Source: a virus (taxonomy: Duplodnaviria; Heunggongvirae; Uroviricota; Caudoviricetes). Taken from it: DNA of 4,791 nucleotides. Made by a program: the position numbers and the translations under genes. Location of the stretch: IMG/VR virus record IMGVR_UViG_2531839029_000017; one strand, 5' to 3'. Below the pieces are notes generated by a model, which was not told the origin of the DNA, made no database searches, and was given only the letters and a program-made list of their open reading frames with translations. Shown here piece by piece: positions 843-4,671 of this stretch. The first letter of the stretch is position 1. The number at the start of each line of letters is the position of its first letter.

Positions 843-884
843 TATTCAATTTTTGATTTTTTAGTATCAACCTTCCATAATAAT

Positions 885-942
885 GTCACCGGAGCTTGAA
901 CAACTCCGGTGACTTCTGCGCATTTAAGGGGACTTAAATGCG
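885..942. terminator. Two adjacent perfect inverted repeats: 10-bp stem gtcaccggag/ctccggtgac with 9-nt loop (885-913) and 10-bp stem cgcatttaag/cttaaatgcg with 4-nt loop (919-942). Candidate terminator(s) or protein-binding palindromes at the cargo/nin-operon boundary.
   Basis: Read directly from the sequence. Intergenic position between the AT-rich segment and ybcN. No strong U-tract follows, so intrinsic-terminator function is uncertain. Confidence 0.35.
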
Positions 943-1032
943 ACCACAATCTGAACTCCTTACCTTGTCACAGATGCAGAAATGCACCTGCGATGTCTTG
1001 CATCCAGCGTTTGATCTCTGCGGAGGTGAAGC

Positions 1033-1488
1033 GTGAACCTCCCACAAGATGGCATCAAATTACATCGCGGTAACTTCACCGCTGTCGGTCAGCAGATCCA
1101 GACTTATCTGGAAGACGGCAAATGCTTTCGCATGGTGCTTAAACCGTGGCGCGAGAGACGCAGTCTTTCCCAGAATGCACTCAGCCACATGTGGTACAGC
1201 GAAATCAGTGAATACCTCATCAGCAGGGGGAAATCGTTCGCTACTTCAGCATGGGTAAAAGATGCTCTCAAACACACATACCTCGGTTATGAAACCAAGG
1301 ACCTGGTTGATGTCGTAACCGGCGAAATCACTACTATCCAGTCGTTACGCCATACCTCCGATCTTGGTACCGGAGAGATGTATGTCTTCCTGTGTAAGGT
1401 TGAAGCCTGGGCGATGAATATTGGCTGCCACCTGACTATTCCACAGAGCTGCGAGTTCCAGCTGCTGCGTGACAAGCAGGAGGCGTAA
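1033..1488 (+). CDS. ybcN: YbcN-family protein (DLP12-type nin-region protein, described as a DNA base-flipping protein)
   Basis: 151-aa ORF starting [15 protein letters not shown], near-identical to my recollection of E. coli K-12 DLP12 YbcN. GTG start at 1033 preceded by GGAGGTG (1022-1028). Lies immediately upstream of ninE, as in DLP12. Confidence 0.8.
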
Positions 1489-1658
1489 TGGCTACACCGC
1501 TTATTCGTGTCATGAACGGACACATCTACAAAGTACCAAATCGTCGTAAGCGTAAACCTGAGCTGAAGCCATCCGAAATACCAACACTGCTCGGATATAC
1601 CGCCAGCCTGGTTGATAAAAAATGGTTGCGACTGGCAGCAAGGAGGAATCATGGCTGA
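1488..1658 (+). CDS. ninE: NinE-family phage protein (56 aa)
   Basis: ATG at 1488 overlaps the ybcN stop TAA (1486-1488) by one base. Translation [56 protein letters not shown] matches recalled DLP12 NinE. Too short to appear in the supplied ORF track. Confidence 0.8.
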   Translation: MATPLIRVMNGHIYKVPNRRKRKPELKPSEIPTLLGYTASLVDKKWLRLAARRNHG

Positions 1659-1941
1659 TTTGAGAAAAGCAGCGCGTAGTCGGGAATGCCAAGTAAGAAT
1701 CCCTGGCGTATGTAATGGCAACCCTGAAACGTCTGTACTGGCACATATCCGGCTGACTGGATTGTGCGGCACCGGTACCAAACCGCCAGACTTGATTGCC
1801 ACCATTGCATGTTCTGCCTGCCACGACGAAATCGACCGCCGCACACATTTTGTCGATGCTGCATATGCAAAAGAATGCGCGCTGGAAGGTATGGCGAGAA
1901 CACAGGTTATCTGGCTGAAAGAGGGGGTTATTAAGGCGTGA
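1651..1941 (+). CDS. ybcO: YbcO-family putative nuclease (DUF1364-like, Cys-rich, 96 aa)
   Basis: [43 protein letters not shown]... matches recalled DLP12 YbcO. AGGAGG at 1641-1646 sits 4 nt upstream of ATG 1651. The track's longer start at 1612 is unlikely because it lies inside ninE with no SD. Confidence 0.8.
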
Positions 1942-2300
1942 ATACCTACAGCATCACATTACCCTGGCCTCCGAGCAATAATCGCTACTACCGGCATAAT
2001 CGCGGGCGCACGCACATCAGCGCAGAAGGGCAGGCATACCGTGATAACGTCGCCCGAATCATCAAAGGCTCCATGCTGGATATCGGCCTGGCTATGCCAG
2101 TGAAAATCCGTATTGAGTGCCACATGCCGGATCGCCGTCGCCGTGACCTGGATAATCTGCAAAAAGCCGCTTTTGACGCACTCACCAAAGCAGGTTTCTG
2201 GCTGGATGATGCTCAGGTCGTTGATTACCGTGTTGTGAAGATGCCCGTTACCAAAGGTGGGAAGCTGGAGCTGACCATCACCGAACTGGGGAATGAATGA
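1938..2300 (+). CDS. rusA: RusA Holliday-junction resolvase (endodeoxyribonuclease RusA, 120 aa)
   Basis: Translation [26 protein letters not shown]...[29 protein letters not shown] matches recalled E. coli RusA, including the acidic DxDN region. GTG start overlaps the ybcO stop (GTGA). Confidence 0.9.
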
Positions 2301-2437
2301 TGTTTGAGTCTTATATGGCAGAACGTCTTCGCCACCGCTGGATGCGCCTGCGCTTATATCGTTTTCCTGGTTCTGTTTTGACCGATTACCGGATACTGAA
2401 GAATTACGCCAAAACACTGAAAGGAGCTGCCGCATGA
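2297..2437 (+). CDS. ylcG: YlcG-family small phage protein (46 aa)
   Basis: ATG at 2297 overlaps the rusA stop (2298-2300). Translation [46 protein letters not shown]. Stop 2435-2437 overlaps the next gene's ATG (ATGA). Position between rusA and Q matches DLP12 ylcG. Below the ORF-track length cutoff. Confidence 0.6.
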
Positions 2438-3123
2438 ATACCCAATATTTACAGTATGTCCGCGAGCAACTCATTGTGGCTACCGCTGATTTGAGCGGAG
2501 CAACGAAAGGACAGCTTGAAGCCTGGCTGGAGCATGCACAATTTGATACTGGTACATACAAACGAAAGAAGCCGCGCATTCTGGATGAGGTAACTGGCAG
2601 GATGATTACGCTGGATAATCCGCCGATTTCCGGTAAGCAGTCGTACGCAAAAGGTTCATCCATTGCACTGGTCAGCCAGGTTGAGTTCTCAACCTCGTCA
2701 TGGCGCCGCGCGGTTCTGTCTCTCGAAGAACATCAGAAAGCGTGGTTGCTGTGGAGTTACAGCGAAAGTGTTCGCTGGGAACATCAGGTCACCATAACGC
2801 AGTGGGCATGGAGCGAGTTTAAGACTCTGTTGGGTACCAGGAAAATTGCAGGTAAGACACTGGAACGTTTGAAGAAGTTGATCTGGCTGGCGGCACAGGA
2901 TGTGAAGAACGAGCTGGCAGGGCGTAAGACCTATGAATACCAGGAGCTGGCATCACTGGTGGGAGTGACATCAAAAAACTGGTCTGAGACATTTACTGAA
3001 CGCTGGGTTGCAATGAAACACATTTTTCTACAGCTTGATAGCCAAGCTTTATTGCTTTTAACGAAAACACGTTCAAAACAAAAGACCACATTTTCACAGC
3101 AAGATATTGCAAAACTGGATTAA
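2434..3123 (+). CDS. Putative late-gene antitermination protein (Q-like), non-lambda family, 229 aa, no cysteines
   Basis: Occupies the Q slot: last gene of the nin operon, just upstream of a non-coding region with promoter and terminator hairpins and then the lysis genes. AAGGAG at 2421-2426 sits 7 nt before the ATG. Not similar to lambda Q as I recall it; family assignment is inferred from position. Confidence 0.5.
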   Translation: MNTQYLQYVREQLIVATADLSGATKGQLEAWLEHAQFDTGTYKRKKPRILDEVTGRMITLDNPPISGKQSYAKGSSIALVSQVEFSTSSWRRAVLSLEEHQKAWLLWSYSESVRWEHQVTITQWAWSEFKTLLGTRKIAGKTLERLKKLIWLAAQDVKNELAGRKTYEYQELASLVGVTSKNWSETFTERWVAMKHIFLQLDSQALLLLTKTRSKQKTTFSQQDIAKLD

Positions 3124-3135
3124 AAATCATATATT
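3107..3135 (+). promoter_or_regulatory. Candidate sigma70 late promoter (PR'-like): -35 TTGCAA (3107-3112), 17-bp spacer, -10 TATATT (3130-3135). An alternative is -35 TTGCCA (3154-3159) with -10 AGTAAT (3177-3182).
   Basis: Hexamer matches read by eye. By analogy with lambda, PR' and qut lie just downstream of Q. Not verified. Confidence 0.25.
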
Positions 3136-3191
3136 TTATGTAAATCTGATATTTTGCCAATGTTGTACGCACTGGCAGTAATCCAAATTCA

Positions 3192-3226
3192 AGCCCGAGG
3201 TTTAAAGCCTTGGGCTTTTCTGTTTC
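3192..3226 (+). terminator. Hairpin with 9-bp stem agcccgagg/ccttgggct (one G-U pair) and 7-nt loop, followed by TTTTCTGTTTC; candidate intrinsic terminator or 5' structure of the late leader RNA
   Basis: Read directly from the sequence. Lies in the Q-to-holin intergenic region. Confidence 0.4.
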
Positions 3227-3304
3227 TGAACGGTGAGTAGCCTTCCAACCTACCCCAGCCAGGGGGTCTTCAGCTGTTGAGTTGATATTGCTTAGCCCTC
3301 TGTT

Positions 3305-3330
3305 GCCAGCTACATGCTGGCTTTTTTATT
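3305..3330 (+). terminator. Intrinsic terminator candidate (tR'-like): 6-bp GC-rich stem gccagc/gctggc, 5-nt loop, then TTTTTTATT
   Basis: Perfect stem followed by a T-run. It is roughly 150-200 nt downstream of the candidate promoters, comparable to the approximately 194-nt lambda 6S transcript ended at tR'. Confidence 0.5.
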
Positions 3331-3432
3331 CCAGGCTTGTGGGGAGCATCAACTCCGTGCTTTGTCGTTAAATTACCCCGTGAGCCTGATTTCTGACATT
3401 TAACGTCCCGGCCTTTTGTCGGCGGCGAAACA

Positions 3433-3750
3433 TTGGCTATTCATATGCACGAAAAAGAGAGCCTTGCCGGAGCGTTCTGGCTCGTTTTGCTGATCATCGC
3501 AGGTTGGGGCGGTCTGGTCCGCTACCTGATAGATGTGAAGCAGAGTAAAGCAACGTGGAGTTGGATAAATGCTCTGGCTCAAATAGTGGTATCAGGATTC
3601 ACCGGTGTTATTGGTGGCCTGATCAGCATCGAAAGTGGATTCAGTATTTACATGATTCTCGCGACAGCGGGGATTAGTGGTGCGATGGGTTCGGTTGCAC
3701 TGACGTACTTCTGGGAACGACTGACAGGGGTGAAAAATGCAAAATCTTAA
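3433..3750 (+). CDS. Putative class I holin with three predicted TM segments and a charged C-terminal tail, not lambda S-like. Possible dual start: TTG 3433 and ATG 3445.
   Basis: Three hydrophobic stretches (AFWLVLLIIAGWGGLV, INALAQIVVSGFTGVIGGLI, FSIYMILATAGISGAMGSVALTYFW) followed by [11 protein letters not shown]. The 3' end overlaps the start of the endolysin gene by 14 nt, as lambda S/R do. Sits immediately downstream of the late terminator region. Confidence 0.55.
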   Translation: MAIHMHEKESLAGAFWLVLLIIAGWGGLVRYLIDVKQSKATWSWINALAQIVVSGFTGVIGGLISIESGFSIYMILATAGISGAMGSVALTYFWERLTGVKNAKS

Positions 3751-4213
3751 TCCTCAGCGTAAAGCCTTCCTCGATATGTTGGCGTGGTCAGAAGGAACGG
3801 ATAACGGGCGACAACCGACACGTAACCACGGTTATGATGTTATTGTTGGCGGCGAACTGTTTACTGATTACTCCGATCACCCTCGCAAACTTGTCACGCT
3901 ACACCCCAAACTCAAATCAACAGCCGCCGGACGTTATCAGCTTCTTTCACGCTGGTGGGATGCTTACCGTAAACAGCTTGGTTTGAAAGACTTCTCCCCC
4001 AAAAGCCAGGACGCAGTGGCATTGCAGCAGATTAAAGAGCGTGGTGCTTTACCTATGATTGATCGCGGTGATATCCGTCAGGCAATCGACCGTTGCAGTA
4101 ATATCTGGGCTTCACTGCCGGGCGCTGGTTATGGTCAGTTCGAGCATAAGGCTGACAGCCTGATTGCAAAATTCAAAGAAGCTGGCGGAACGGTCAGAGA
4201 GAGTGAGGTATGA
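3737..4213 (+). CDS. R: Endolysin, lambda R-type lytic transglycosylase (158 aa)
   Basis: Near-identical to recalled lambda R ([20 protein letters not shown]...[31 protein letters not shown]), including the catalytic Glu in the WSEGT motif. Only the first few residues and a few scattered positions differ. Confidence 0.95.
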
Positions 4214-4671
4214 GCAGAATAACCGCGATTATCTCCGCTCTGCTCATCTGCATCATCGTCTGCCTGTCATGGGCTGTTAATCATTACCGTGATAACGCCA
4301 TTACCTACAAAGCCCAGCGCGACAAAAATGCCAGAGAACTGAAGCTGGCGAACGTGGCAATTACTGACATGCAGATGCGTCAGCGTGATGTTGCTGCGCT
4401 CGATGCAAAATACACGAAGGAGTTAGCTGATGCGAAAGCTGAAAATGATGCTCTGCATGATGATGTTGCCGCTGGTCGTCGTCGGTTGCACATCAAAGCA
4501 GTCTGTCAGTCAGTGCGTGAAGCCACCACCGCCTCCGGCGTGGATAATGCAGCCTCCCCCCGACTGGCAGACACCGCTGAACGGGATTATTTCACCCTCA
4601 GAGAGAGGCTGATCACTATGCAAAAACAACTGGAAGGAACCCAGAAGTATATTAATGAGCAGTGCAGATAG
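4210..4671 (+). CDS. Rz: Rz inner-membrane spanin (i-spanin), 153 aa
   Basis: Near-identical to recalled lambda Rz ([47 protein letters not shown]...YINEQCR). N-terminal TM segment. ATG overlaps the R stop (ATGA). Confidence 0.95.
4430..4612 (+). CDS. Rz1: Rz1 outer-membrane lipoprotein spanin (o-spanin), 60 aa, embedded in the +1 frame of Rz
   Basis: Translation [24 protein letters not shown]...[29 protein letters not shown] matches recalled lambda Rz1. Lipobox VVGC and proline-rich region. AAGGAG at 4417-4422 sits 7 nt before the ATG. Confidence 0.9.

Follow-up and report, generated by a model that had tools for sequence, protein, structure and literature searches.

Gene organization of the locus

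The window, by which the whole analysed stretch of 4,791 bp is meant, contains ninB-like, ninE, ybcO, rusA (PF05866), ylcG (NF033498), Q, the late promoter pR', holin, R and Rz/Rz1 genes in this order. A preliminary description of the DNA had placed the Q-slot gene after rusA/ylcG and before a promoter/terminator region and the lysis genes, and this order was confirmed by gene calls and family matches. The lysis cassette 3' of Q is intact; it is separated from Q by a non-coding gap of 310 bp, and its R-Rz region shows 94.6% DNA identity to lambda. The genes under study were located as follows.

2434–3123, + strand: Q gene of the phage 82 type (229 aa, without Cys; late-gene transcription antiterminator), assigned by PF06323, PHROG 304 and identity to phage 82 Q
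3433–4671, + strand: late (lysis) genes, comprising a LydA-type holin (PF16083), a lambda-R-like endolysin, Rz and the embedded Rz1 (4430–4612), assigned by gene calls, Pfam and PHROG

The Q ORF (2434–3123, +) consists of 229 codons followed by TAA, is preceded by a GGAG ribosome-binding site located 8–11 nt 5' of its ATG, and overlaps the ylcG-like ORF, the stop codon of which shares bases with the Q ATG (ATGA). The exact window Q protein was found on at least 1000 contigs of a public protein collection, and window positions 2300–3500 recurred at 100% identity in E. coli chromosomes, that of an O157 strain among them; the identical E. coli DNA carries the RefSeq label 'bacteriophage antitermination protein Q'.

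The 158-aa endolysin ORF (3737–4213, +) matched PHROG 90 'endolysin' (E 1.6e-63) and gave no Pfam match at E ≤ 0.01. The record of phage PhiR47_2 splits the endolysin gene into two CDS, suggestive of a frameshift there. At the 5' end of the window, an ORF of 152 aa (73–531, +) matched PHROG 2371 over the full length and the integrase/recombinase PHROG 95 in the C-terminal part only (450–585 of 651). A ybcK-type serine recombinase is annotated at this position in related phages, similarity to PhiR47_2 begins at window base 70, and ORF 73–531 probably represents either a recombinase gene that has been truncated or a junction formed by recombination.

Identification of the Q protein

Three families of Q proteins have been described, Q21 (PF06530), lambda Q (PF03589) and Q82 (PF06323) (PMC9388147, PMC7171158). 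In the HMM search against the Pfam antiterminator families that the preliminary description had proposed, PF06323 (Phage_antiter_Q) was matched by window Q over the full length (E 1.4e-94; 316.3 bits, the cutoff being 25; positions 1–217 of the 220 in the profile), and PHROG 304 'anti-termination protein Q-like' was matched with an E-value of 1.5e-108. PF06323 was the sole family matched in Pfam and NCBIfam, the latter giving no model for window Q; no match to PF03589 was obtained at E ≤ 0.01, and window Q was not assigned to PF06530. The preliminary description had considered that the protein might be a different kind of late regulator, and had named homology to a non-regulatory family as evidence against an antiterminator; since the family searches matched no other family, neither suspicion found support. 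In a control Pfam scan, lambda Q was assigned to PF03589 (193 bits), and phage 82 Q (317.5 bits) and phage 434 Q were both assigned to PF06323.

Window Q and phage 82 Q (X92588.1, CAA63332.1) share 225 of 229 residues without gaps, and are alike in length (229 aa) and in the absence of Cys. The four substitutions (Q204E, K211R, T218A and D224N) are conservative and confined to the C-terminal tail, where conservation is poor. At the DNA level the Q gene differs from that of phage 82 by 11 nucleotides, corresponding to 6 synonymous and 4 non-synonymous codon changes and no frameshift. Window positions 876–3123 show 95.7% DNA identity to X92588.1 (orf151-orf56-orf96-rus-orf45-Q), a record entitled 'Bacteriophage 82 orf33, orf151, orf56, orf96, rus, orf45 and Q genes', and the upstream genes are thus the same in both (orf151/ybcN, orf56/ninE, orf96/ybcO, rus and orf45/ylcG). 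Among other relatives, phage 434 Q (OL657226.1, annotated 'Q82-like') is 87% identical to window Q and belongs to the same Pfam family, and Gifsy-1 AntQ of Salmonella is ~70% identical over residues 1–216. Q21 (PF06530; PDB 6JNX) and P. aeruginosa AlpA (PDB 7XYB) differ in being without sequence similarity to window Q and in their Pfam family.

By these comparisons the product of the window ORF is very probably (probability about 0.96) a Q protein of the phage 82 type, which serves a lambdoid prophage as late-gene antiterminator. The Q slot is filled by a known protein, and the phage 82 Q system is itself already known. The earlier statement that the antiterminator identity could be deduced from gene order only has therefore to be withdrawn, because the biochemically characterised 82 Q is 98% identical.

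Cysteine content and comparison with lambda Q

The preliminary description had read from the translation that the 229-aa Q-slot protein is without any Cys, and our count of the translation was the same (0 Cys, 4 His). The probability of 0 Cys in 229 aa is ~0.08 at 1.1% Cys, the background figure assumed for E. coli proteins, and ~0.007–0.01 at 2.0–2.2% Cys, the background of the other window ORFs and of distant family members; the absence of Cys at this length is mildly unusual, not rare. No Cys was present in 81 of the 133 close relatives of window Q. Nearly all close relatives contain 0–1 Cys per protein and distant members 2–8; phage 82 Q contains 0, and phage 434 Q contains 1 (S107C), whereas window Q has none. 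As judged from these sequences, the Cys-free state is a trait of the clade and is not peculiar to the window copy; it marks the family and is not the sign of a new regulator.

Lambda Q is composed of a four-helix body (residues 61–113 and 153–207, with a helix-turn-helix (HTH) formed by H4-H5) and a zinc-ribbon arm (residues 114–152), which touches DNA and the zinc-binding domain of RNA polymerase (PMC9388147). The earlier claim that lambda Q uses a Cys4 zinc-binding motif agrees with this location of the zinc ribbon at residues 114–152 (PMC9388147), and in our own scan a sub-threshold match to the DnaJ CXXCXGXG motif was obtained in the same stretch. Lambda Q (PF03589; PDB 4MO1, 7UBN) contains 7 Cys in all and bears the zinc-ribbon arm, whereas window Q has neither, and overall sequence similarity between the two proteins was not detectable.

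For the Q82 family, 63 full-length representatives of 50%-identity clusters were aligned together with window Q (64 sequences), and in this diverse set no column contained more than 50% Cys. A conserved metal site in the distant members with 2–8 Cys was considered and rejected, the top Cys columns (108, 122 and 198 in window numbering) reaching only 37–50%. In these columns Cys alternates with A/V, T/V and L/F, respectively, a pattern that fits buried positions and not metal ligands. The lack of Cys has a structural explanation: in lambda Q four Cys form the zinc-ribbon arm inserted in the helical body, and this insertion is missing from the Q82 family.

The two families were further compared by profile alignment with hhalign, using for the lambda family a profile of 11 phage-record sequences; viral contigs scanned with lambda Q yielded identical copies only, which were of no use for the profile. 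In local mode the Q82 and lambda-family profiles were aligned with a score of 30.1 (P 9e-4, probability 22.6%), as compared with scores of at most 14.5 for 40 column shuffles and 16.0 for the reversed profile. [quoted passage not shown] In a greedy, low-confidence alignment (-mact 0.1), the lambda arm was placed in gapped Q82-family columns of near-zero confidence. With the single lambda Q sequence in place of the lambda-family profile, the Q82 profile gave no significant match (probability 0.5%), and global mode, applied to the Q82 and lambda-family profiles, gave nothing. The result of this Q82/lambda Q comparison has already been stated from AlphaFold models (PMC9371919). At most, the helical bodies of the Q82 and lambda families go back to a remote common ancestor.

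Predicted structure

The preliminary description had also called for a structure prediction, and in the AF2 model of window Q an HTH appears at residues ~169–195.

2939–3020, + strand: predicted HTH, residues ~169–195 (helix 169–176 and the start of helix 180–225), likely to bind the Q82 binding element (QBE), from the AF2 model and hhalign

The pLDDT exceeds 95 across this stretch, and W183 and W191 hardly vary across the Q82 family. On the model, residues ~169–195 likely constitute a DNA-binding HTH; the lambda Q paper, with which the position was compared, gives the HTH as H4-H5 and does not give per-helix ranges (PMC9388147). A Foldseek search against the PDB returned weak matches (E ~0.3), the top two being AlpA and lambda Q, and a search against BFVD yielded a single family member without further informative matches. 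A PDB sequence search with window Q gave no match at E ≤ 10 and no Q82-family structure, and a later paper reporting such a structure was not found in the literature. The locus is a natural example of the sole Q family still without an experimental structure, for which a nozzle versus an open shield is unsettled (PMC9388147).

Predicted late promoter, pause module and terminators

Downstream of the HTH-coding region, the following elements were located at the end of Q and in the gap between Q and the holin gene.

3107–3112, + strand: pR' −35 hexamer TTGCAA, within the last Q codons (promoter scan, 9/12 match with a 17-bp spacer)
3113–3129, + strand: 17-bp spacer AACTGGATTAAAAATCA, including the Q stop codon, the expected place of the QBE (PMC4914094 and conservation)
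3130–3135, + strand: pR' −10 hexamer TATATT, part of a 14-nt direct repeat (promoter scan and alignment of relatives)
3142, + strand: putative pR' +1, set by placing GCC at +15–17 as published for 82 pR'
3147–3158, + strand: predicted sigma70-dependent pause element, consisting of an extended −10-like TGaTATTTT (+6 to +14) and the discriminator GCC (+15–17) (after the description in PMC5001585)
3159–3167, + strand: AT-rich +18 to +25 (AATGTTGT) with T at +25 and the expected pause at +25/+26 (after the description in PMC5001585)
3191–3222, + strand: first intrinsic-terminator-like hairpin (12 bp, 6 GC pairs; 3191–3217) with a TTTTCTGTTTCT tail, end at ~+80 (terminator scan and folding)
3305–3328, + strand: second terminator-like hairpin GCCAGC-TACAT-GCTGGC (3305–3321) followed by TTTTTTA, end at ~+186 (terminator scan and folding)

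The putative +1 (3142) lies 7 nt past the −10 hexamer and sets TG at +6/+7, TATTTT at +9–14, GCC at +15–17 and AATGTTGT at +18–25, with T at +25. In 82 pR' the discriminator GCC is located at +15–17, the stretch from +18 to +25 is AT-rich with U at +25, and the polymerase pauses at +25/+26, as compared with +16/17 in lambda; the −10-like pause element is closer to TATAAT than that of lambda and includes an extended −10, and insertions at +9 shift the whole pause element, those at +15 parting it from the discriminator (PMC5001585). By its sequence the window module fits every published position of 82 pR', the match being one against the verbal description of this promoter: X92588.1 stops at the Q stop codon, and the agreement of the published 82 pR' features with the window downstream region was consequently established by description. 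The suggestion that the Q family and the qut site differ from those of lambda is upheld, the family being PF06323 and not PF03589 and the module being of the 82 type with a pause at +25 versus +16 in lambda.

The QBE lies between −35 and −10, and the segment from −31 to +30 of 82 pR' is sufficient (PMC4914094). This segment corresponds to window positions 3111–3171, inside which the spacer (3113–3129) falls. The pR' region of the window was aligned with those of phage 434, PPompW, KO-TP1, BHUENT6, CobraSix, PhiR47_2 and Gifsy-1, and across these phages with Q82-family genes (8 aligned) a block was conserved that begins with the initial base of the −35 hexamer and extends to ~+14. TTGCAA was invariant in the 8 related phages, including Gifsy-1, where it does not adjoin Q; the spacer contained a conserved block AA(C/G)TnnATT(A/G)AA, and CTGATAT was kept in 8/8. 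The Gifsy-1 block is away from Q and yet begins exactly at TTGCAA, and for this reason the conservation of the pR' block is not a by-product of Q coding. In a DNA search, similarity to closer relatives stopped at ~+36. Phage 434 has the same −35/spacer/−10/pause module as the window through ~+20, whereas its sequence past ~+20 and its downstream genes are unrelated. A 14-nt direct repeat (+), 86% identical and 18 bp apart, links promoter and pause element: the first copy (3124–3137, AAATCATATATTTT) carries the promoter −10 hexamer, and the second (3142–3155, AAATCTGATATTTT) carries the sigma70 pause-inducing element.

Other motifs overlap the same region. The window's only exact match to TTGCN6TTGC, which we take to be the lambda CII-site consensus, is TTGCAATATCTTGC (3099–3112, −), overlapping the pR' −35 and the last Q codons. 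In the record of phage 434 the equivalent spot is labelled as a CII site and carries a paQ −35 signal. The window match may be due to chance, at least one match to TTGCN6TTGC having occurred in 65 of 200 shuffles. A promoter-like TTGGCA-16-TAAAAT (3133–3160, −) matches the consensus at 10/12 positions versus 9/12 for pR', points into Q and shares bases with the −10 and pause elements of pR'; the AT-rich repeat may have given rise to it incidentally.

Hairpins between Q and the lysis genes had been noted in the preliminary description, and two terminator-like hairpins were located there (3191–3217 and 3305–3321), the T-tract of the first being interrupted (TTTTCTGTTTCT). In the scanned region of 500 bp, 6 terminator-like sites were found versus 0.7 expected from shuffles, and the leader fold was more stable than shuffled sequence (z = −3.85).

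Proposed mechanism and alternative explanations

The mechanism proposed here is that of the published 82 Q work, and 82 Q activity is assigned to window Q because of the 98% identity and the matching cis module. Antitermination by 82 Q, its dependence on the QBE, its stimulation by NusA and its contact with the flap-tip helix have been described, and in purified in vitro systems 82 Q brings about terminator read-through and needs a sigma70-dependent paused complex (PMC4914094). RNA polymerase with sigma70 would start constitutively at pR' (+1 at ~3142), and sigma70 region 2 would then re-bind the extended −10-like repeat (+6 to +14), so that the complex pauses at +25/+26. Without Q, transcripts would stop at the hairpin terminators at ~+80 and ~+186. 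Q would bind the QBE in the promoter spacer, probably via the predicted C-terminal HTH, touch the paused polymerase at its beta flap-tip helix with the help of NusA, and remain on the elongation complex. The Q-loaded complex would ignore the terminators, and holin, R, Rz, Rz1 and the genes beyond would be transcribed. Q82 may block termination by a closed nozzle or by an open, NusA-dependent shield; the nozzle mechanism was shown for Q21 and AlpA, not for Q82, and Q82 can load on complexes with long RNA (PMC9388147).

O157-type E. coli strains carry many defective lambdoid prophages, and the identical copies in E. coli chromosomes, that of an O157 strain included, together with the probable recombinase remnant upstream (ORF 73–531), would agree with a relic in which the Q82 homologue, although intact, lies idle in a defective prophage and no longer drives the late operon. 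Judging from 4.8 kb, the complete prophage may be a cryptic one and its Q gene rarely used. Nevertheless, none of the elements is disrupted, from the ORF and its ribosome-binding site through the promoter/pause module and the terminators to the four lysis genes; the differences from phage 82 Q amount to 6 synonymous and 4 conservative non-synonymous changes with no frameshift, and a near-identical module is present in PhiR47_2, which was deposited as a complete phage genome with E. coli as host. An idle relic is therefore considered unlikely.

A classical activator of the late promoter, in place of an antiterminator, would accord with the wording 'transcriptional activator/anti-terminator' in the phage 434 record and with the predicted HTH, the binding site of which would fall inside the promoter. 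The 98%-identical 82 Q, however, gives read-through in vitro via the sigma70-dependent paused complex (PMC4914094), and the layout of the locus, with already usable pR' hexamers (9/12) and terminators directly after them, is that of antitermination, which makes a classical activator very improbable. It is equally hard to regard window Q as a divergent member of the lambda Q family that has lost its zinc site: PF03589 was not matched, the hhalign probability was just 22.6%, and window Q belongs to a separate curated family with phage 82 Q as its type member. Moreover, a recent loss of the site is contradicted by the Q82 family as a whole, which is without a conserved Cys column. The assignment as a phage 82-type antiterminator is preferred. 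Phage 82 Q is among the best-studied transcription antiterminators, and the window carries an ordinary copy of it with the associated late promoter, pause site, terminators and lysis genes. The practical value of the assignment lies in correct annotation, and little else changes.

Leader RNA and isrJ

Window positions 3139–3218 (+) were matched by the Rfam model of isrJ (RF01393), an Hfq-binding sRNA of Salmonella, at 30.4 bits as compared with a gathering score of 37 (E 3e-4, local search). The model starts at 3139, 3 nt 5' of the putative +1, and its terminator stem aligns at the first hairpin. With the same model the Gifsy-1 pR' leader scored 100 bits and the leaders of three Klebsiella/Enterobacter phages scored 63–73 bits. 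IsrJ of Gifsy-1 has been described as a short stable sRNA with a rho-independent terminator at its end (PMC4825925), and the Gifsy-1 isrJ locus has the same −35-to-terminator module as window 3107–3218. By this sequence comparison, isrJ RNAs appear to be the leader transcripts of 82-type late promoters, short and terminated in the manner of the 6S RNA of lambda.

The two loci differ in arrangement, as the module adjoins Q in the window, whereas in Gifsy-1 isrK-orf45-anrP lie between the module and the Q gene (PMC4825925). In the Gifsy-1 segment compared with window 3106–3152 (NC_010392.1 33167–33813), the module is located ~870 bp 3' of the Q-like gene, and IsrK, a second short terminated RNA, is encoded directly 3' of Q (PMC4825925); the late control region of Gifsy-1 seems to have been duplicated, or split by insertion. 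The window gap between Q and the holin gene contains no tRNA genes. In the Stx2a phage/PPompW and in Enterobacter phage BHUENT6, 2–3 tRNA genes are located right after the Q82-type pR' leader, and in KO-TP1 a match to the STnc100 sRNA was found 3' of the Q82-type pR'.
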